From Candidatus Nanopusillus acidilobi (GTDB lineage: Archaea > Nanobdellota > Nanobdellia > Nanobdellales > Nanobdellaceae), in assembly GCA_001552015.1 (NCBI GenBank), contig CP010514.1, positions 480,001 to 512,000 of the forward strand: 32,000 nt of DNA. The letters are read 5' to 3'. Shown here in pieces: positions 5,158 to 19,563 of the stretch. Numbering within the stretch: the stretch's first letter is position 1; the number at the start of each line of letters is the position of its first letter. The notes beneath the pieces are model-generated. The model was given only the letters and a program-made list of their open reading frames with translations. It did not search any database and was not told the DNA's origin. The position numbers and the translations under genes are program-made.

Positions 5158-7062
5158 TTAAGATAATAAATGCTTTTCTTCTAAAATATCTGCCAACCAT
5201 TTTAAATCCAATTCTTCTAACTTCTCTCTTGTAGGTCTTCCATTTATCCAACCTCTTGCTTTATAATATTCAGGTAACATTTCACTAATCTTTACTACAT
5301 AACCTGCAGAGGGACCTTCTTTAAATGGTTCTTCTAAAAACCTTTTTGGTAAATTATCATATTCTAAATTATCTCCAAATACTAAAATATTATATACTCT
5401 TTCTGCATTCCATATCCTTTCCCCAATTTTTAATAATTCTTGAGAGTTAATATCCCATCCAGTAACTGCAGATAATTGTTCAGCATATATTTCTTCATTC
5501 AATGCATATCTTGAAAATCTACATACAATCATACTATCAATTACTGCAGCTAAATCTTGTTCTTTTTTTATCAATTCTCCTTTACCCTTTGTTTCAAATC
5601 TATTAATATTATTATTTCCTAAATAAGTTGGTTCTGTAACTTCTTTAAATAATCCAAGTTGATCATAATCACCCGTATTACTTGTTGCATACCATAATCC
5701 ATAACCCTGCGCTCCTCTAGGATCAAAACCAAACAAAGGCATTCCTCTTTTATTTATCATTGCATATTCTTCTGAATTATATTTCTTTGCAAATTCTTTT
5801 GTACCTTCTGATAATTCATCTCCAATTCCATTTCTATTTGCAATTCTATATATTAATTCAATAATTAATTCTGGATCTCCCCAATTAACTTTTAATCCTT
5901 CTAATTTTTCTTTTGGTATTTTTCCTTTTTCTACCAATTCAATAAATGTTCCAATAACATGACCTGTTCCAACAATATCTAAACCCAATTCATTACATAA
6001 GTGATAAGCTCTTAAAACAGAAGGTAAATTATCATTATTTAGATTATATCCAAATCCCCATACACCCATATATTCTGGACCATCTCCTTCTGTACTAAAT
6101 AATGGTTCATCAGCCTTTGTATATTTTTTACATCCTATTGGACAACCCCAACATACTGATTCCCTTGTCTTTTCTTGATCTAAATATTCTTTTACAATTG
6201 TTTCTCCAGATAATTTATTAAAATCTGAAAATATATTTGTTTGATAATTTTTTACAGGTATCATGCCCTTTTCTCCTAAAGCTTTTGCTAAAAATCCTGC
6301 AGTTCCATATTTTGGTAATATTACAGATGTAATTGCCGAATTTCTTACAAATTGAGAAGATTTTAAAATAACTTCTCTAAATTTTTCCTGATTTGCAATT
6401 TGGGGTTTTAAATTTCCTCTTACAGCAATTGCCTTCAAATTCTTACTTCCAAATACTGCAGCAATTCCACCTCTTCCAACAGCACCTTTTCCTTTATCTT
6501 CAATTACTGCTGATATTTTAACTAATTTTTCACCCGCAGGTCCTATACTAATTACCTTAATATTTTTTGCATCATCTTTTCCAACAATAGATGATAATTC
6601 TTCCCTAATTAAATCTACAGTCTGATAAACTGTTTTTCCCCATAAATTTTTTGCATCTCTTATTTCTGCTTTTCCATTGTATATCCATAAATATACTGGC
6701 CTATTTGCTTTTCCTTCAATTATTATAAAATCAAAACCTGAAAATTTTAATTCTGCACCAAATTTTCCTCCAGCATTTCCTTCATAAACTGTATTAGTTA
6801 TTGGAGATTTAGTAACAATAGACCATCTTCCAGCAGTTGGAATTCCGACAATTCCAGTTACAGGTCCTGTAGCAATAATTAATTTGTTTTCAGGACTTAA
6901 AGGATCTACATTTGGTGGTACTTCTTTTATTATATAATATGTACCAATTCCTCTTCCTCCCAACCATTTTCTCAATATATCTTCTGAAGGTAAAGGTTCT
7001 ATGGAAATTTTTTCTTCAGTTAAATTCACTCTTAAAACTTTTCCCATATATCCATAAACCAT
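5158..7062 (-). CDS. aor: Tungsten-type aldehyde:ferredoxin oxidoreductase (AOR family)
   Basis: 634 aa. The N-terminus GKVLRVNLTEEKISIEPLP...WLGGRGIGTYY and the 4Fe-4S ligand cluster CWGCPIGC fit the AOR family, as does the length. The true start may be the internal Met (MGKVL). Confidence 0.9.
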   Translation of the reverse strand: MVYGYMGKVLRVNLTEEKISIEPLPSEDILRKWLGGRGIGTYYIIKEVPPNVDPLSPENKLIIATGPVTGIVGIPTAGRWSIVTKSPITNTVYEGNAGGKFGAELKFSGFDFIIIEGKANRPVYLWIYNGKAEIRDAKNLWGKTVYQTVDLIREELSSIVGKDDAKNIKVISIGPAGEKLVKISAVIEDKGKGAVGRGGIAAVFGSKNLKAIAVRGNLKPQIANQEKFREVILKSSQFVRNSAITSVILPKYGTAGFLAKALGEKGMIPVKNYQTNIFSDFNKLSGETIVKEYLDQEKTRESVCWGCPIGCKKYTKADEPLFSTEGDGPEYMGVWGFGYNLNNDNLPSVLRAYHLCNELGLDIVGTGHVIGTFIELVEKGKIPKEKLEGLKVNWGDPELIIELIYRIANRNGIGDELSEGTKEFAKKYNSEEYAMINKRGMPLFGFDPRGAQGYGLWYATSNTGDYDQLGLFKEVTEPTYLGNNNINRFETKGKGELIKKEQDLAAVIDSMIVCRFSRYALNEEIYAEQLSAVTGWDINSQELLKIGERIWNAERVYNILVFGDNLEYDNLPKRFLEEPFKEGPSAGYVVKISEMLPEYYKARGWINGRPTREKLEELDLKWLADILEEKHLLS

Positions 7063-7393: not shown

Positions 7394-8110
7394 TTATTTT
7401 CCAAATCTCCTTTCCCTTTTCTTATACCATTCAATTGCATTTATAAAATCCTCTTTTGTAATCTCTGGCCAATATTTATCTATAAAATATAATTCAGAAT
7501 ATGCAGCTTGATATAATAAATAATTACTTATTCTATGTTCTCCACTTGTTCTTATTATTAAATCTGGCTCTGGATATGGAATTTCATCACCAAAATATAA
7601 ATATTTCATGAATAATGACTCATCTAAATTATTAATATCTATAATACCCTTTTTAAAATCTTCAAATAATTTTTTAATACCATCAATTATTTCTTGTCTG
7701 CTTCCATATATAACTGCCAAATTTAAATAATAATTAGAATTATTTTTTGTAAAATCTTCTACTAATTTTATTTCTTTCTGAACATCATCTGGTAAAAGAT
7801 TTGTCCTACCAATTATCTTTACTTTTACTTTATTTTCAATAATCCTTTTATCTTCTCTTATCATTTTTAATTTCTCTTTTAATAATTCTAATACAGGATC
7901 TACATCTTCCTTTGGTCTTTTTAGAAAATTATCATATGAAATAATAAAAATTGTAGCAACCTTTATACCAAATTCTATGCACCAATTTAAAAATTCTACA
8001 GCTTTATCAGAACCAATCTTATATGCTTCATATACAGATAAATTATATTTTTTAGCATACCTTCTATTGCCATCTGGTATAACTGCTATATGTTTTGGAA
8101 TATTATCCAT
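7394..8110 (-). CDS. uppS: cis-Prenyltransferase (undecaprenyl/dolichyl-type diphosphate synthase)
   Basis: 238 aa. Motifs HIAVIPDGNRRYA, the IIRTSGEHRISNYLLYQ block, and the C-terminal RRFG fit the UppS family. Confidence 0.9.
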   Translation of the reverse strand: MDNIPKHIAVIPDGNRRYAKKYNLSVYEAYKIGSDKAVEFLNWCIEFGIKVATIFIISYDNFLKRPKEDVDPVLELLKEKLKMIREDKRIIENKVKVKIIGRTNLLPDDVQKEIKLVEDFTKNNSNYYLNLAVIYGSRQEIIDGIKKLFEDFKKGIIDINNLDESLFMKYLYFGDEIPYPEPDLIIRTSGEHRISNYLLYQAAYSELYFIDKYWPEITKEDFINAIEWYKKRERRFGK

Positions 8111-8495: not shown

Positions 8496-9794
8496 ATGGA
8501 TATTATTATAGGAAGATCAATAGATGATTTAGAAAAATATGGACTAGAAGGTTCAATTTTTATAGGTAAAGAATATATAAAAATGGAAAATGCTTTATCT
8601 TTAGCAAATACGGTATATTTAGATGTAAATCTTCCACATTTAATATTAATTGCTGGAAAAAGGGGACAAGGAAAAAGTTATACATTAGCTTCAATATTTG
8701 AAAGTTTATCAGATCTTGAAGAAGATTTATTAAAAAATTTCTCAGGATTAATATTTGATACAGCAGGAATATTTTGGACAATGAAATTTCCAAATTATAG
8801 AGATGCTGAATTATTAGAAAAATGGGGTTTAAAACCAAAATCAATAAAAAATTGTAGAATATTGGTTCCTAAAGGTTTATTAGATGAATATAGAAAAATA
8901 AATGTTCCTATAGATGATACTTTTCAATTAGATCCATCAGATCTTTCAGGAATTGAATGGGTTTTAACATTTAATTTAGATCCGGCATCAAATATTGCAT
9001 TATATATACAAAAAATTATAAAAAGAATGAAGGAAAATAATAATGGATATTCTATACAAGATATAATAAGTTATACAGAAAAAATGGATATAGATAGTAA
9101 TATTAAAAATGCTATAACTACATATTTTGAAAATGCAGATAGCTGGGGATTATTTTCTGAAAAAGCTGAAAGCATAAGAAATTTAACAAAACCTGGTTAT
9201 ATAAATATATTAGACATATCATTATATACTACAATAACTGGAGGATGGTCAGTAAAAAATCTAGTAATTGGATTAGTATCTAAAAAAATATTTTATCAAA
9301 GATTAATATATAGGAAAGTAGAAGAATTGGAAGAGATATATATTTCAAAAGAATTAGGTACAAGAGAATTTCCATTGATATGGATTGCAATTGATGAAGC
9401 TCACGAAGCAATTCCAAATGATTCAATTACACCAGCAACAGAACCATTAATACAGATAATAAGAGAAGGAAGACAGCCAGGTATAACATTAGTATTAGCA
9501 ACGCAACAACCTGGTAAAATGCATACAGATGTAATTACACAAAGTGATATAGTCATATCACATAGAGTAACTGCAGAAGAAGATTTAAAATCTTTAAATG
9601 AAATAATGAAAAACTTTACTGCGCAAGATATTGATATATATATGAATGAAAATATACCAAAGAAAAAAGGCGCTGCTTTAATTTTAGATGATAAATCTGA
9701 AAAAATATATCCAGTTCAAATAAAACCGAGGGTTTCCTGGCATGGAGGTTCAGATCCTACTTTAATTAGAAAAAGATTATGGCTAGAGGGATAG
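8496..9794 (+). CDS. HerA/FtsK-superfamily (DUF87-like) P-loop ATPase
   Basis: 432 aa. Walker A is LILIAGKRGQGKSYT and Walker B is LIWIAIDEAHEA (hhhhDEAH). The block IIREGRQPGITLVLATQQPGKMHTDVITQSDIVISHRVT matches the HerA-type REGRK-G...sQrP...Rl arrangement. There are no PilB/ArlI-type Asp/His boxes. Confidence 0.75.
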   Translation: MDIIIGRSIDDLEKYGLEGSIFIGKEYIKMENALSLANTVYLDVNLPHLILIAGKRGQGKSYTLASIFESLSDLEEDLLKNFSGLIFDTAGIFWTMKFPNYRDAELLEKWGLKPKSIKNCRILVPKGLLDEYRKINVPIDDTFQLDPSDLSGIEWVLTFNLDPASNIALYIQKIIKRMKENNNGYSIQDIISYTEKMDIDSNIKNAITTYFENADSWGLFSEKAESIRNLTKPGYINILDISLYTTITGGWSVKNLVIGLVSKKIFYQRLIYRKVEELEEIYISKELGTREFPLIWIAIDEAHEAIPNDSITPATEPLIQIIREGRQPGITLVLATQQPGKMHTDVITQSDIVISHRVTAEEDLKSLNEIMKNFTAQDIDIYMNENIPKKKGAALILDDKSEKIYPVQIKPRVSWHGGSDPTLIRKRLWLEG

Positions 9795-12019
9795 TAAAGG
9801 AAATAGAAGGAGTAATTGCAATAGTAATTTTTATTTCATTTTTAACATTTTATTTAACAATGTATAAAGAATATATGATAAATAACATTAACAATTATAA
9901 TCAAATAAATTATTATAATAATTATATAAACAATATACTGAATTCAATTGAAAGTGAATATTATTTATTATCATTAAATGTTTCAATACCATTGTCTATG
10001 TATTATCAATGTTTATCAAATTCTTCAATATATAAGAATTTAATTTTTGAAAATGCATATAATGATTTTTGTACATCTTTTCCAATCTATTATCCATTAA
10101 ATATATCCTTTTTAACAAATTATTCTGGAGTATTAAATAATACAAATAATACATATTTAGATCCAAATGTTGGAATATTCTTTTATGCAAATTTTACAAG
10201 TTTTAATATAAACAATAATCAACCACAATATGTTTTAATAAATGTTTCAAATCCTTCAAAACAAAATTTAACTAATTATCCTGTATTTATAACTTCTACT
10301 GATATTTTTTATTGGCTGCAAAATGGTTCTAATCTATCCGTAGAAGATTTGAATGGAAATAATTATTCTTTTTGTTATTTAAATAATAATCTAAATTGTA
10401 ATAGTTTTAATAATAATGCCTATGGAATTTGGGTTGATTTAAATATATCTCCATATGGTTATGTAATATTAAATATTTCTCCAATAAATGGAACAAATAA
10501 CTATTCAGTTGATGGAAAAGAAATATTTCCAGTATATGATATATTTAATTATACAAATTATCAACAATTTAGTCAATATTGGACAAATAATACTCCTATA
10601 AATATTATATATATGAATCCGGGAGACAATATTTATTCTTGTTCTCAATATTCAAGTATATTAAACTCATGCATCCAATATAATAACTTCAAAATTACTT
10701 ATAATACCGTTATTCCTAAAGGTAATTATTTAATATTATTTAATATTCAAAATGAGAGTTATTCTTATAATGCATATATACAATTAGGAGATAAATGTAA
10801 TATAAATCTACCATCTTCTGGAGACCAAAATTCTTTATATGTTTATTATTGTTATAATAATGACAATAATGATAATTTACAAATATCTGGTCAAAATATT
10901 ACTACATATTATATAAATTTAATTCCATATAATGTAATACCAAATATAAAAATACTTTATCAACCAAATTTAACCAATAATTATAAATTTATTATAGGTC
11001 CAAATTTAACTTATGATTTTTCTCAATATAATGATCTAGGATTGTCTAATTCTAATAATAACTTTGCAATATATAATAATAATTTAGCATATTTTTCTTA
11101 TATAACACAAATTATAACTAAAATTATAATAAATACAAGTGGTACTTATTTTTATTCTAATTCTATTTCATATTATTCTATTCCAGAAACATATTCTACA
11201 GACTGTTTTTCATATATCAAAATTGGATTTTCGTTTTATACTTCCGAATATGAGCCTTATAATTTAACTCCCTATGTTTATAATGATTCACTAGCTTTAT
11301 TATATCTATATAATTCCACAAATCTATCAATAAAAGACATAATATTTTCTAATACTTATTGGTATATATTTAATACAGAAAAATATTATAATTCAAATAA
11401 TATGATGTTTTGGAATACTTCACAATCTAGTTATGGTTTTATTTTAGACTCAACGAATATTTATAATAAAATATTCAATCTAAACAATTTATATAACGGA
11501 TATTTATATTATGAATATGAGAATGGTATAATACTAAGAAGATATATACAAACTACTTGCCCATACCTATATTCTATATTATATACAAATTATAATCCAA
11601 CAATATATATTTCAAATATTTCCTCATATGATAATTATAACAATCTTTATTTCTTAAATGCAACATTAAATAATAATTATAATTATCAAAATTATTACTT
11701 CTATTTATATTCAAATCCAAATTTAGATAAACAAACTGCATTATATTTAGCATTTTCTACTCAAATTCCATATATTGAAATAAACTATATTAAACCAATA
11801 AATGTAATAAATTTAAATAATTTAGTTAATTTATCAGAAAATTATCAAAATGTATATTTTTACTTTAATAATTTAAATATAACAATATTTAATGGGACAA
11901 TATCTCAAGGGAATATTGTAAATAATTATACATATTCAGAAAACTTCAATATATATGTATTGAATAATACAATGGTAAATACATTATATAAAGATCAATT
12001 AACAATATATATAAAATGA
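9779..12019 (+). CDS. Large (746 aa) Asn/Tyr-rich predicted surface glycoprotein with archaeal type-IV-pilin-like N-terminus and a DUF2341-like segment
   Basis: A 746-codon ORF in roughly 18% GC DNA is very unlikely by chance. Its start lies 16 nt inside the ATPase ORF. The N-terminus MARG-IVKEIEGVIAIVIFISFLTFYL resembles archaeal pilin N-terminal domains (RGxSEVIGVILLIAI type). There are dozens of N-x-S/T sequons. The segment YVLINVSNPSKQNLTNYPVFITS...LSVEDLNGNNYSFCYL...AYGIWVDLNISPYGYVILNISP resembles the DUF2341 consensus as I recall it. Confidence 0.7.
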   Translation: MARGIVKEIEGVIAIVIFISFLTFYLTMYKEYMINNINNYNQINYYNNYINNILNSIESEYYLLSLNVSIPLSMYYQCLSNSSIYKNLIFENAYNDFCTSFPIYYPLNISFLTNYSGVLNNTNNTYLDPNVGIFFYANFTSFNINNNQPQYVLINVSNPSKQNLTNYPVFITSTDIFYWLQNGSNLSVEDLNGNNYSFCYLNNNLNCNSFNNNAYGIWVDLNISPYGYVILNISPINGTNNYSVDGKEIFPVYDIFNYTNYQQFSQYWTNNTPINIIYMNPGDNIYSCSQYSSILNSCIQYNNFKITYNTVIPKGNYLILFNIQNESYSYNAYIQLGDKCNINLPSSGDQNSLYVYYCYNNDNNDNLQISGQNITTYYINLIPYNVIPNIKILYQPNLTNNYKFIIGPNLTYDFSQYNDLGLSNSNNNFAIYNNNLAYFSYITQIITKIIINTSGTYFYSNSISYYSIPETYSTDCFSYIKIGFSFYTSEYEPYNLTPYVYNDSLALLYLYNSTNLSIKDIIFSNTYWYIFNTEKYYNSNNMMFWNTSQSSYGFILDSTNIYNKIFNLNNLYNGYLYYEYENGIILRRYIQTTCPYLYSILYTNYNPTIYISNISSYDNYNNLYFLNATLNNNYNYQNYYFYLYSNPNLDKQTALYLAFSTQIPYIEINYIKPINVINLNNLVNLSENYQNVYFYFNNLNITIFNGTISQGNIVNNYTYSENFNIYVLNNTMVNTLYKDQLTIYIK

Positions 12020-12336
12020 GAAGCTGGATAATATTGGTAGAATTAGCATTTTCAATAATATTATTAACATTCTTTTTCTTATATACTTATTATAGTAAAT
12101 CTAGCAATTATAATATTTATTCTTTTGACCCAAATAATTTAATTTACCTAAATTCTTCATGTAACAATAATTTATATATATATGAAATAATAAATCTAAC
12201 AAATAATAATATCACAATATGTTATTTTGGAAAACAAGTAAATTCAACATATATACAAAATCATGAACCAATATTTGAATATTTATATGCAGGCCAAAAT
12301 TATTTTAATCCATATATATTAATTATATTTGGATGA
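12016..12336 (+). CDS. Small prepilin-like membrane/surface protein (106 aa)
   Basis: ATGA overlap with the upstream gene. The N-terminus is MRS-WIILVELAFSIILLTFFFLY, a basic head, a small residue, then a hydrophobic helix containing Glu. It has 2 Cys and 4 sequons (NSS, NLT, NIT, NST). Confidence 0.55.
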   Translation: MRSWIILVELAFSIILLTFFFLYTYYSKSSNYNIYSFDPNNLIYLNSSCNNNLYIYEIINLTNNNITICYFGKQVNSTYIQNHEPIFEYLYAGQNYFNPYILIIFG

Positions 12337-12773
12337 GATCTCAATATATATTATTAGCAACAATTGCAATTATCATTATTTTATCTTTTATTACATATTA
12401 CAATATTTCTCCAATAAAGAATATTAATCCAAATTTAATAGGAGAAAATTTTGAAGATCAAATAACATATATATATCAAAATTTTGGATATAATTATATA
12501 TCTAATTATACATTATATTTTGAAAATTATACAGAAGATATTAATTACAATTTTTCTTTTATTTGTATATCTTCATATAATTTATCAATTCAAGCATGTA
12601 ATGGAAATAATATAAATTGTTGTTATTATTTTAATGGATCTTTTTTTGTAAATCAAAATATATTAAAATATTGCAATGAAAACTTTATTTTATATAATCC
12701 ACCAAATTGGATTTGTTTTTGTTATAATGTAAATAATTCTAATAGTTATTATATTAATTTCTTTTGTGTCTAA
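12333..12773 (+). CDS. Small prepilin-like Cys-rich surface protein (146 aa)
   Basis: ATGA overlap with the upstream gene. The N-terminus is MRS-QYILLATIAIIIILSFITYY. The C-terminal half has 9 Cys, and there are about 7 sequons. Confidence 0.55.
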   Translation: MRSQYILLATIAIIIILSFITYYNISPIKNINPNLIGENFEDQITYIYQNFGYNYISNYTLYFENYTEDINYNFSFICISSYNLSIQACNGNNINCCYYFNGSFFVNQNILKYCNENFILYNPPNWICFCYNVNNSNSYYINFFCV

Positions 12774-13240
12774 CATAAGCTAATATATAAACCTGATTGA
12801 TTTTTATTTAATAATAAACATAAATTATTTGTAATTGTAAGATTAGAACTATTTATTATATTAAATGGGACTGTATTAATAGTAAAATTATATTCATAAT
12901 CATATGCAGATAATTGAGTTATATTTAAATTTATATATGGTGGAACTTGTAAAGAATAATTTATAGTAGAATAATATATACACATTATTTCTCCCGGATA
13001 AATATATATGATTGTTTTTGATGGTAAATTATTATAAGCTTTATAATTACATGAATAACAAGATCCAATTGTCTCTATTTGATAATTTAAATTTGTTAAT
13101 AAATTTACAATATATTTTAAGTTTAATTCATCCTGTTGATTTTGAACTGTTAAATGAACAAAATATATAACAAAAGATAATATAGAAAGAGCAAACGCAG
13201 TATATATTAAAAATTCAATCCATAAACTTATACCCTTCAT
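12770..13240 (-). CDS. Small prepilin-like surface protein (156 aa)
   Basis: The N-terminus MKG-ISLWIEFLIYTAFALSILSFVIYF is close to the classical KG/FTLIE-type class III signal. It has 5 Cys and 6 sequons. Its start overlaps the rps19e stop by 4 nt, and its stop overlaps the convergent 146-aa gene by 4 nt. Confidence 0.55.
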   Translation of the reverse strand: MKGISLWIEFLIYTAFALSILSFVIYFVHLTVQNQQDELNLKYIVNLLTNLNYQIETIGSCYSCNYKAYNNLPSKTIIYIYPGEIMCIYYSTINYSLQVPPYINLNITQLSAYDYEYNFTINTVPFNIINSSNLTITNNLCLLLNKNQSGLYISLC

Positions 13241-13746
13241 GAAACAGATTTAATATAATCAATTAAATTCTTATTTTCATTATTTAATTCTTTATATATT
13301 TCATTAGCTAATTTATCTAATAAACTTCTTCCATTATTTGTTACAACTCTTCCTTTTTTCTTTCCTTCATTTACTTTCATAACCAATCCAGCATTTTCCA
13401 ATTGATGCAATATTTCCCTTATTAATTTTCCATATCCTCTTACAACTTTTCCAGGTTCCATTCCCCTTTTTCTTAATCCAGAATATTTTCTTCTTAATCT
13501 AGAAATACCAATTGGCCCATATAAATATACTTTCCTTAAAATAGATGCTGCCCTATAATACCACCATCCAGGTCCTCCATTATAATCTAAATCCGCTGGA
13601 AAGTCTGGATTTCTTTCTTTATCTGGTCCTGTTTTAATAAAAAATGCCCAACTTGGTGGTTTTATTATATCTTTATAATTTTCGAATAAATATTTAGCTA
13701 ATCTTTCTACAAGTATTTGACCATTTACATCTCTTACAGATACCAT
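13237..13746 (-). CDS. rps19e: Ribosomal protein S19e (eS19)
   Basis: MVSVRDVNGQILVERLAKYL...PSWAFFIKTGPDKERNP...WWYYRAASILRKVYLYGPIGISRLRRKYSG matches eS19. The ORF track begins 3 codons earlier at a TTG (13755); I prefer the ATG at 13746. Confidence 0.9.
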   Translation of the reverse strand: MVSVRDVNGQILVERLAKYLFENYKDIIKPPSWAFFIKTGPDKERNPDFPADLDYNGGPGWWYYRAASILRKVYLYGPIGISRLRRKYSGLRKRGMEPGKVVRGYGKLIREILHQLENAGLVMKVNEGKKKGRVVTNNGRSLLDKLANEIYKELNNENKNLIDYIKSVS

Positions 13747-13789
13747 AATATGCAATATTTATAAAACATTTTTAAAATATATGTAAATT
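13747..13789. promoter_or_regulatory. Divergent promoter spacer with two opposed TATA-like boxes (rps19e / rpl37ae)
   Basis: TTTATAAAA at 13758-13766 lies 24-32 nt upstream of the rpl37ae ATG (13790). TTTAAAAT at 13771-13778, read on the minus strand, lies about 25-32 nt upstream of the rps19e ATG (13746). This is a weak call because the DNA is AT-rich. Confidence 0.35.
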
Positions 13790-18171: not shown

Positions 18172-19563
18172 ATGAGCATAACAATAAATAATCTAATTAA
18201 ATTCTATCAAAATAATAAAGAGATTCTGGAAGATATGGTAAAAATTTCACAAAATAGAGAAGTTGGATATTTATTATCAAATAATAGTTTTGGACATAGA
18301 CCATCAAAAATAGAAACAGAAGATGATATAATAAATTATATTAAAAAGGGTGCTATTTCATTTCATATATCACTTGAGAGATGGATTGATCTAAATATTT
18401 TGAGTGAAAAAGTTTCAAAAAAAGATTTAAATGAATATAGATTAGGATGGGATTTTATAATAGATATAGATACAAAATCTTTAGATCTATCAAAAGTTAC
18501 TGCAAGAATTATCTTTGATTATTTAAAAGAAAAAAATATTAATCCTATATATATAAAATATTCTGGAGGAAAAGGATTTCATATAGCAATTCCATGGGAA
18601 GTATTTCCAGAAACAATAAATATATATAAAAAGGATAATGTTATAGAAGAAGAAACAAGGAAATTATTTCCGGATCTTGCAAGAATATTAGCATTATATA
18701 TATCAAAGGAAATAGAAGAGAAGTTAAAGAAAATAATATTATTGAAATTTAGTGAAGATGAATTAAAAGAATATGGGGTAAACGATATAGAAAAATTTAA
18801 TCCATATGATATAATTGAAATAGATACAATATTAATATCATCAAGACATTTAATTAGATGTTTATATTCAATAAATGAAAAAACAGGAAATTTATCTATA
18901 CCAATAAAAGAAAACTATATAGAAAAATTAAATCCTGAAGATTCCAATATAAATAATTATTCATATGAAGGTATACCATATTTAACTGAAGATTTAGAAA
19001 GAAAAGAATCAAAGGAATTAAAAAAATTAATTAATGATTCTTTATTATGGAAAATAAAAAATGAATTTGAAGTAAGAAAAATTAGTCAATTAGCAGAAAA
19101 TTACAAAAATCAGGAAGGGATTGAGGAAGCAAAAAAAGATGTAGAAGAAATAAAGAAAAGAAAAATAGAAATAACTGAAGATTTATTTCCCCCATGTATA
19201 AAAAATATATTAAATAATAAAGAAATGGATGATGGAAGAAAAAGATCTTTATTTATATTAATAAATTTCTTTGCAAATATCGGATGGGATTGGGATAAAA
19301 TTGAAAGATATATAAAAGAATGGAATGAAAGTTTACAGGATCCATTAAGAGATAGATATGTAGAATATCAATTAGAATGGCATAAGAAATTATATAAAAA
19401 TAATAAAAAATATTTAACTCCAAATTGCAATAATGAAATATATTATAAAGATATTGGAGTATGCACACCAGATAATATTTGTTCATTAATTAAAAATCCT
19501 TTGTCATATCCAATTAAAAAAATTAAAAATATAAAATCTTCTCAGGATTCTCAAAATAATTAA
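18172..19563 (+). CDS. Fused archaeo-eukaryotic primase: PriS catalytic domain plus PriL-type Fe-S C-terminal domain in one polypeptide
   Basis: 463 aa. The N-terminal half has the AEP motifs GWDFIIDIDTK (DxD) and YSGGKGFHIAIPW. The C-terminal half has LFPPCIKNILNN...GRKRSLFILINFFANIGW, which is the PriL FPPC region, plus three further Cys (TPNC, GVC, NIC) that could complete a 4Fe-4S site. Confidence 0.8.
   Translation: MSITINNLIKFYQNNKEILEDMVKISQNREVGYLLSNNSFGHRPSKIETEDDIINYIKKGAISFHISLERWIDLNILSEKVSKKDLNEYRLGWDFIIDIDTKSLDLSKVTARIIFDYLKEKNINPIYIKYSGGKGFHIAIPWEVFPETINIYKKDNVIEEETRKLFPDLARILALYISKEIEEKLKKIILLKFSEDELKEYGVNDIEKFNPYDIIEIDTILISSRHLIRCLYSINEKTGNLSIPIKENYIEKLNPEDSNINNYSYEGIPYLTEDLERKESKELKKLINDSLLWKIKNEFEVRKISQLAENYKNQEGIEEAKKDVEEIKKRKIEITEDLFPPCIKNILNNKEMDDGRKRSLFILINFFANIGWDWDKIERYIKEWNESLQDPLRDRYVEYQLEWHKKLYKNNKKYLTPNCNNEIYYKDIGVCTPDNICSLIKNPLSYPIKKIKNIKSSQDSQNN

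Follow-up and report, generated by a model that had tools for sequence, protein, structure and literature searches.

Within a 32-kb window from the genome of Candidatus Nanopusillus acidilobi, a very small symbiont from hot springs (the whole stretch analyzed, to which all positions refer), a gene for a HerA-clade P-loop ATPase is followed by three genes, and faced by a convergent fourth, that encode surface proteins with pilin-like N-termini. We put the chances at about even that the locus consists of two separate modules lying side by side, an orphan HerA-like ATPase and a new family of pilins or adhesins. The ATPase would be the local copy of a soluble enzyme found throughout Nanoarchaeota, with a core job independent of the genes downstream. 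The four proteins would be a fast-diverging, N-glycosylated set specific to Nanopusillaceae, in which a large protein of adhesin type is joined by two or three small, pilin-like subunits. They would most likely be the pilin/adhesin module of a canonical type IV filament (T2SSE plus T2SSF) encoded elsewhere in the genome, and would serve attachment to a host or surface. Because the ATPase is phylum-wide and its partners are family-specific, juxtaposition and co-expression are favored over a filament driven by a HerA-type enzyme.

Nanoarchaeota are found attached to a host archaeon, by a mode of recognition and holding that, to our knowledge, is not known. The four proteins are concrete, testable candidates for missing nanoarchaeal pilin/adhesin parts. 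The ATPase, the role of which may lie in DNA repair, chromosome handling, or the envelope, is strongly conserved in organisms that have very few genes to spare, and it lacks a known partner nuclease in its vicinity. The gene set is not described in the literature searched on HerA, DUF87, and NurA in DPANN archaea and on the Nanobdella, Nanopusillus, and Nst1 genomes.

The ATPase: family, fold, and distribution

The translated ATPase carries Walker A (AGKRGQGKSYT) and Walker B (IWIAIDEAHEA) motifs and a block reading REGRQPG...ATQQPG...ISHRV. These motifs, the five open reading frames (ORFs), their overlaps, and their N-termini had been reported in a first-pass annotation made from the sequence, and all were confirmed. 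Its placement of the protein in the HerA/FtsK superfamily also holds, since Pfam, a profile search of PDB, and Foldseek place the ATPase in the HerA clade. Pfam matches are to DUF87 (1.8e-11), HerA_C (4.3e-5), and, marginally, Zot. A 16-sequence profile searched against PDB recovered HerA first (2.4e-16 to 2e-10), then FtsK (0.012), a VirD4-like coupling protein (0.11), and T2SSE (0.83). For the AlphaFold2 model, built from 63 homologues (predicted local distance difference test, pLDDT, 89.9; predicted template modeling score, pTM, 0.91), the leading Foldseek matches in PDB are HerA-NurA of T. kodakarensis (9x1m; 1.8e-20, TMq 0.67) and HerA of S. solfataricus (4d2i). The best 50 matches are HerA-type translocases and close relatives, with anti-phage HerAs, D. 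radiodurans HerA, TdpA, and DndH after the leaders. Among the families that had been proposed for profile and fold checks, HerA came first, and FtsK and T2SSE were weak. PADLOC (mad8, 4e-22; HerA models, 1e-15) and PHROGs returned only generic ATPase matches.

The ATPase is a soluble HerA-clade enzyme and not a canonical HerA. Its sequence has no hydrophobic segment. Walker A begins at residue 54 and, in the model, the core is preceded by ~45 residues that form three strands (2–5, 20–30, and 33–43); this stub stands in place of the HAS barrel, which occupies ~100 residues in HerA and is not present in the model. Matches to the HerA models of NCBIfam are weak and partial (28–45 bits vs. cut-offs of 800–970), with scores below the cut-off for both equivalogs, NF040937 (31.2 bits vs. 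800) and NF040819 (27.9 vs. 970). Matches to CedD (14.6 bits vs. a cut-off of 600), PilT, and EssC are negligible. By analogy with HerA, the enzyme is presumably a hexameric ring translocase.

More than 3,400 homologues, at 43–50% identity, are spread across Woesearchaeota, Pacearchaeota, Parvarchaeota, and other Nanoarchaeota, and at least 576 GTDB species-level matches were found. The ATPase family is an uncharacterized, phylum-spanning family of the HerA clade. Neighborhoods were compared at 80 GTDB loci (those of relatives are designated by L-numbers), of which those of ~60 species outside Nanopusillaceae were considered here. At these ~60 loci, the gene downstream of the ATPase is never pilin-like. 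The absence of pilin-like genes beside the ATPase at these loci implies that its core function is independent of the four proteins. A Pfam scan of 105 immediate neighbors at the same loci placed none of NurA, Mre11, Rad50, T2SSE, T2SSF, or pilin among the 25 most frequent families; with NurA not among these families, the ATPase appears not to be a NurA operon partner. The arrangement that had been named as speaking against a link to the membrane proteins, orthologues beside NurA, Mre11, or Rad50, was therefore not seen in the frequent neighbor families, yet linkage to pilin-like genes is also lacking at the ~60 loci outside Nanopusillaceae.

When neighbor families were clustered within 5 kb of the ATPase, those that recurred were a divergent, membrane-anchored SurA/PpiC-type rotamase (20 loci; SurA_N/Rotamase in 11–14 members of the Pfam scan), a 76-residue membrane protein (19 loci), Trm5 (17), a 99-residue protein encoded in the same direction (15), signal peptide peptidase of presenilin type (10), an M48 protease (10), and further TrpRS, DnaG, RFC, and FEN1. 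Replication and repair genes are often near the ATPase; they encode DnaG, RFC, FEN1, topoisomerase VI, an OB-fold protein, and DNA ligase.

At 14–20 loci of Woesearchaeota type (L003, L016, L041–L047, L060, L062, L076, and others), the SurA_N/PpiC rotamase gene lies ~200 bp upstream of the ATPase gene and is divergent from it. At 15 loci, the ATPase gene is followed, in the same orientation, by that of the 99-residue protein (MAFSKSFPK...), and at seven an OB-fold protein is encoded immediately upstream. A second, tandem paralogue of the ATPase is directly downstream of the first in L037 (8601–9941), L043 (8413–9708), and L061 (5992–7329). The gene of an M48 (HtpX-like) membrane protease stops exactly at the ATPase start codon in L084 (5881–6741) and L010 (6141–7001).

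Four surface proteins confined to Nanopusillaceae

Each of the four proteins has a single N-terminal hydrophobic segment, and K, E, R, and D make up 7–8% of residues (8% in the large protein), compared to 24–41% in cytoplasmic proteins of the window. All had been described as dense in N-x-S/T sequons, and counts were compared with those of 2,000 composition-matched shuffles per protein. The description stands for the large protein (35 sequons vs. 20.6 expected, reached in 0 of 2,000 shuffles) and the 146-residue protein (7 vs. 2.9, reached in 25 shuffles), is borderline for the 156-residue protein (6 vs. 3.0, reached in 108 shuffles), and does not extend to the 106-residue protein, the excess of which is not significant. 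Read directly from sequence, the four are predicted to be extracellular, N-glycosylated surface proteins. A soluble ATPase would be unable to act on them without a polytopic platform because only 3–10 residues of each are predicted to face the cytoplasm, and the operon encodes no such platform.

The four proteins carry class III-like N-termini, which are putative signals. The short basic head, small residue, and hydrophobic stretch that had been pointed out in each are conserved among orthologues as [KR][GSA] followed by hydrophobic residues. Orthologues of the large protein begin M-x-[KR]-[GSA]/I... (MKRA/ISHIEW in the L085 counterpart), those of the 106-residue protein MR[SG]/WI.L.E, those of the 146-residue protein M[RK][SN]/QYILL, and those of the 156-residue protein MKG/[IV]SLW[IV]EF. 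A Glu, described as frequent in the hydrophobic stretch, is in or just before this segment in all but the 146-residue protein. We infer that the proteins may be cleaved by a class III signal peptidase, incorporated into a filament, and involved in adhesion.

The four proteins are confined to Nanopusillaceae. All 54 homologues of the large protein and all 15 of the 156-residue protein belong to this family, and HMMER, run exhaustively against 1.84 billion representatives, recovered only 10 relatives of the 146-residue protein. They also diverge much faster than the ATPase. In L087, the ATPase is 68% identical and its partners are 30–46% identical, with the large protein aligning over only ~200 residues. 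The 106-residue orthologue is 65% identical in Nanobdella and 33% in the Nanoclepta-type L087. Homology of the large protein to its counterparts in L084, L010, and L085 is limited to an N-proximal domain of ~180 residues. A suspected resemblance of this domain to DUF2341 was dropped because the BLAST E value was 0.86 and the family hidden Markov model missed the DUF2341 protein of L123 among 2,470 ORFs.

The layout of five genes recurs in Nanobdella, L005, L087, and L123/L009. These regions are syntenic throughout and add little; relatives with rearrangements are informative. In L084, the ATPase (68% identical) is preceded by the M48 protease and followed by a 541-residue homologue of the large protein and small proteins of 92 and 130 residues. 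Directly adjacent, downstream of this surface module, are two convergent T2SSF genes and then a T2SSE gene. L010 has the ATPase/large-gene pair, unrelated genes, and then ArlG/ArlF-like genes. In L085, a methyltransferase is encoded upstream of the ATPase and the protein downstream is a homologue of the large protein. In L086, the ATPase is 59% identical and the pairing with the large protein is lost. L084 and L010 lack the 156-residue gene. When metagenomes were scanned with the T2SSE of L084 as query, 35 further loci were recovered, which have neither a HerA-like neighbor nor a homologue of the four proteins.

The combination of one large and three small proteins had been likened to a minor-pilin tip complex and, with the ATPase, to a possible new surface structure. 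The organization of a canonical DPANN filament locus does not bear out such novelty. In L093, recovered with a T2SSE query, T2SSE is followed by a KaiC-like protein, two T2SSF, and a 1,022-residue beta-helix/carbohydrate-binding module protein with an N-terminal helix. The locus continues with seven small N-terminal-helix proteins, one of which reads KG/ISFTLE and resembles the KG/ISLWIE of the 156-residue protein. This layout implies that pilin modules of archaeal filament loci ordinarily consist of a large protein with small pilin-like ones; T2SSE and T2SSF genes adjoin the homologous module in L084. For Nanoarchaeota of this group, an archaellum and two type IV pilus systems are reported (PMC6142677), and the cognate pilins of nanoarchaeal type IV pilus ATPases were not identified in a census (PMC4858521). 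Archaeal filament systems frequently include large adhesins and pilin loci that stand alone (bioRxiv 10.64898/2026.04.22.720090). As the first-pass annotation had claimed for the locus, the Pfam scan of the window, which covered most ORFs of the 32 kb (those outside about 21–26 kb), found no PilB/PilC (T2SSE/T2SSF), NurA, Mre11, Rad50, or VirB-like protein; it also found no prepilin peptidase among these ORFs.

Alternative explanations of the locus

Several results weigh against two separate modules. The ATPase/large-gene pair is kept, always overlapping, in three contexts, those of the window, L084/L010, and L085, and the clade that bears it comprises ATPases at least 64% identical. Such retention goes beyond what synteny alone would give, and it is a pattern that functional links usually leave. 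A homologous module adjoins T2SSE/T2SSF genes in a single locus. The four proteins match no model of Pfam, NCBIfam, PADLOC, or PHROGs, including Pilin_N and Arch_flagellin. This silence is uninformative on pilin identity because in L093, as a control, only two of the seven small proteins weakly touch Pilin_N or Arch_flagellin. The AlphaFold2 model of the 156-residue protein, from a 10-sequence alignment, has a helix over residues 2–58 and then strands, with a pLDDT of 43 that is too poor to test for a pilin fold. One orthologue of the 146-residue protein has Asn at the putative -1 position (MRN/QY). Lastly, two nanoarchaeal genomes reportedly yielded no prepilin peptidase (Makarova et al. 2016; PMC4858521).

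The retained pairing is one reason to consider a single apparatus, built from the HerA-type ATPase and all four pilin-like proteins, for a filament, adhesion, or transfer, in which the ATPase would replace PilB/ArlI, for example in the uptake of host DNA, nucleotides, or protein. The overlapping genes are probably co-transcribed, as the large gene is without a promoter-like element, and HerA-clade enzymes are ring translocases. The SurA/PpiC foldase, the commonest neighbor of the ATPase in Woesearchaeota, and the M48 protease of 10 loci hint at an envelope theme. We nevertheless regard a single apparatus as improbable. Orthologues of the ATPase in ~60 other species are without such partners, the four proteins are restricted to a single family, and the pairing was lost in L086. 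Relative to other members, the ATPase of the pair-bearing clade has no extra domain and differs only in four discriminating columns and small indels. A HerA-driven filament is disfavored because this clade gained no domain, the enzyme is soluble, the operon encodes no polytopic platform or channel, and canonical machinery is available, with filament genes reported in the group (PMC6142677) and adjoining the module in L084. The earlier proposal of a noncanonical filament driven or assembled by a HerA-type ATPase is therefore unsupported, and the comparison of neighborhoods that it had called for is split between a pair kept in three contexts in Nanopusillaceae and its absence from the ~60 other Nanoarchaeota species. 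In a variant that we consider a long shot, the ATPase is an envelope translocase that in Nanopusillaceae works with the pilin-like proteins as a competence-like pseudopilus or conduit, its HerA-type ring motor pulling in host substrate, and elsewhere in Nanoarchaeota pairs with other envelope partners, such as the SurA/PpiC-type foldase. If true, the substrate taken up (host DNA, nucleotides, or protein) would be pulled by a motor of HerA type rather than of PilB or VirB4 type.

The remaining alternatives each concern one half of the locus. The four proteins could be ordinary, uncleaved type II signal-anchored glycoproteins, acting as adhesins of the cell wall or of host contact, with a superficial resemblance to class III signals. 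This is a possible, somewhat unlikely, reading to which the lack of pilin profile matches and of a prepilin peptidase in two nanoarchaea (PMC4858521) lend weight, as do leaders of only 3–4 residues, a variable -1 residue, a proline soon after the helix in the 146-residue protein, and the lack of a reliable fold model. Hypothetical proteins with a single N-terminal helix are also a large class in Nanoarchaeota and, in population data, their fastest-diversifying genes (PMC6142677). Uncleaved anchors would not, however, account for a small residue after the basic residue and an early Glu in the helix that are conserved in three of four families, a large-then-small order that mirrors canonical filament loci, the adjacency to T2SSE/T2SSF in L084, or the long N-terminal helix and subsequent strands predicted, at low confidence, for the 156-residue protein. 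Similarly doubtful is that the ATPase is the DNA-repair HerA of these archaea, unrelated to the envelope and with NurA, Mre11, and Rad50 encoded elsewhere. In both structure and profile, it is closest to HerA-NurA complexes, one database source labels the Nanobdella orthologue HerA, and replication and repair genes are frequent in its neighborhoods. Yet equivalog scores of 28–31 bits are far from the 800–970 of the cut-offs, ~45 residues precede Walker A where HerA has its HAS barrel, and NurA, Mre11, and Rad50 are missing from the frequent families of the 105 immediate neighbors. We therefore retain the reading of an orphan ATPase beside a pilin/adhesin module at the even chance given above.

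Gene layout, flanking genes, and known systems

Features of the locus are listed in table 1. The overlaps in the chain of genes had been reported with exact coordinates, and the sequence confirms an overlap of 16 nucleotides between the ATPase and large genes, ATGA overlaps at 12016 and 12333, and a convergent overlap of 4 nucleotides at 12770–12773. Overlap as such is generic in the window; of 43 adjacent gene pairs, 18 share nucleotides, and some of these are unrelated, for example ZPR1/SepF.

Table 1. Features of the ATPase locus in the 32-kb window.
Feature	Position	Strand	Basis or location
Candidate archaeal TATA-like element, TTTATTAA/TTATAAAAA	8466-8482	+	Between about -30 and -14 relative to the ATPase start codon
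HerA-clade P-loop ATPase, soluble, 432 residues	8496-9794	+	ORF, Pfam, model
Large N-terminally anchored, Asn/Tyr-rich, sequon-dense surface protein, 746 residues; candidate adhesin/tip-type component	9779-12019	+	
Small pilin-like membrane-anchored protein, 106 residues	12016-12336	+	
Small Cys-containing pilin-like surface protein, 146 residues	12333-12773	+	
Small pilin-like surface protein, 156 residues, convergent with the + strand chain	12770-13240	-	

The element TTTATTAA/TTATAAAAA is a candidate that would be the promoter of a leaderless transcript opening the + strand chain. At -30 to -22, similar elements of TTTAWAAA type precede further first genes of the window (S19e, L37ae, undecaprenyl diphosphate synthase family, aldehyde:ferredoxin oxidoreductase [AOR], prefoldin, and the 97-residue gene described below) and are absent 5' of the large and 156-residue genes. 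Because the large gene has no promoter-like element before it and the overlap is always kept, it is probably co-expressed with the ATPase, which we read as operon packing in a compact genome; a functional meaning of this co-expression is possible but unproven. The 156-residue gene starts within the stop of the gene of ribosomal protein S19e through an ATGA overlap (13237–13240, - strand; the pair spans 12770–13755), an overlap that the first-pass annotation had not mentioned; the arrangement is kept in Nanobdella, L005, L087, and L123. This start, together with the lack of a promoter-like element of its own, suggests that it is probably co-transcribed with S19e. In a scan with bacterial sigma-70 and terminator models, which are uninformative for an archaeon, counts equaled those of shuffles.

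The window has a G+C content of 24%. Values fall to 17.6–20% over 10000–13000, where the four surface proteins are encoded, versus ~24–25% in the flanks, which fits the Asn/Tyr/Ile-rich composition of these proteins. Recent foreign origin of this region is disfavored because of synteny across genera. The best matches are from Nanopusillus, Nanobsidianus, and Nanobdella.

Other genes in and around the locus were also identified. A 97-residue protein (1026–1319, +) has an N-terminal hydrophobic segment, MKSESTLPMFILPALIIAASIVA, 5% charged residues, and no Pfam match. ORFs of the same size hold its position in Nanobdella and L087, and the locus may thus have one more protein of surface or pilin-like character near it. 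A full-length AOR (5158–7062, -; AFOR_N, 1e-78; AFOR_C, 2e-117) is encoded between genes of a GTPase and of the undecaprenyl diphosphate synthase family and is lacking in the syntenic regions of Nanobdella (L001) and L087. Its local G+C content of 28–31%, above the window average, suggests a lineage-specific insertion. The undecaprenyl diphosphate synthase-family gene (7394–8110, -; Pfam Prenyltransf) is divergent from the operon of sequon-dense proteins, and homologous-looking Prenyltransf genes are near the ATPase in the Woesearchaeota loci L034 and L058. We take its product to be a cis-prenyltransferase, the kind of enzyme that supplies archaeal N-glycosylation with its dolichol carrier. 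Upstream of the ATPase operon and divergent from it in L123 (5677–7517, -) and L124 (2031–3871, -) are genes of a 152-residue protein starting MKGIATVISYVLLF and a 461-residue DUF2341 protein. They constitute a second pair of small and large surface proteins, in which the DUF2341 gene of L124 appears broken into pieces. Lastly, a 463-residue protein (18172–19563, +) matches the families of both the small and large subunits of DNA primase, making it a fused PriS-PriL primase; the fusion is also found in L085, L123, and L124.

Among known systems, the Ced and Ted systems of DNA import and bacterial type IV secretion (CedB/VirB4, CedD/VirD4; CedA1/TedC/VirB2 pili) likewise combine an ATPase of the HerA/FtsK superfamily with small membrane proteins, which are able to build a pilus (PMC11823120). 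However, the window ATPase is of the HerA clade, with a score for CedD far below the cut-off and no VirB4 in the lists from PDB profile and Foldseek searches. Furthermore, the small proteins have one N-terminal helix instead of a two-helix hairpin, and the operon encodes no polytopic CedA/VirB6-like protein. The type of ATPase, the topology of the pilins, and the lack of a channel thus all speak against an identity with these systems. Anti-phage systems with HerA (Sir2-HerA, DUF4297-HerA, and MADS mad8) are similar in ATPase profile and fold but differ in context, as the window ATPase has no adjacent effector and its gene is single and vertically conserved among housekeeping genes across the phylum. 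An anti-phage HerA system is excluded by this context, given that only the ATPase is matched by PADLOC and that synteny of the locus extends across genera.

The ATPase most closely resembles archaeal HerA (9x1m and 4d2i), with which it shares the RecA-like core, Walker A and B, EGRxxG and (S/T)Q(R/Q)P motifs, and a near full-length fold (Foldseek E values of 1e-18 to 1e-20; TMq of 0.58–0.67). In contrast to HerA, it is ~100 residues shorter, has the three-strand stub, scores below the equivalog cut-offs, is not seen linked to NurA, Mre11, or Rad50 among its frequent neighbor families, and belongs to its own family that spans Nanoarchaeota at 43–50% identity. The four surface proteins are best compared with the pilin/adhesin modules of archaeal type IV filaments (DPANN subsystem 4A/system 1; Ups pilins UpsA/B/C). 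Although they match no known pilin or adhesin family, lie in an operon with a HerA-clade ATPase, have only putative cleavage sites, and lack T2SSE/T2SSF among the scanned window ORFs (most, not all, of the ORFs), they share with these modules an order of one large anchored protein and then small ones, a short basic leader, a small residue and ~20 hydrophobic residues, and N-glycosylation sites. As would be the case for those of the window, pilin genes of archaeal filaments can sit apart from those of the ATPase and platform (bioRxiv 10.64898/2026.04.22.720090; PMC11823120).

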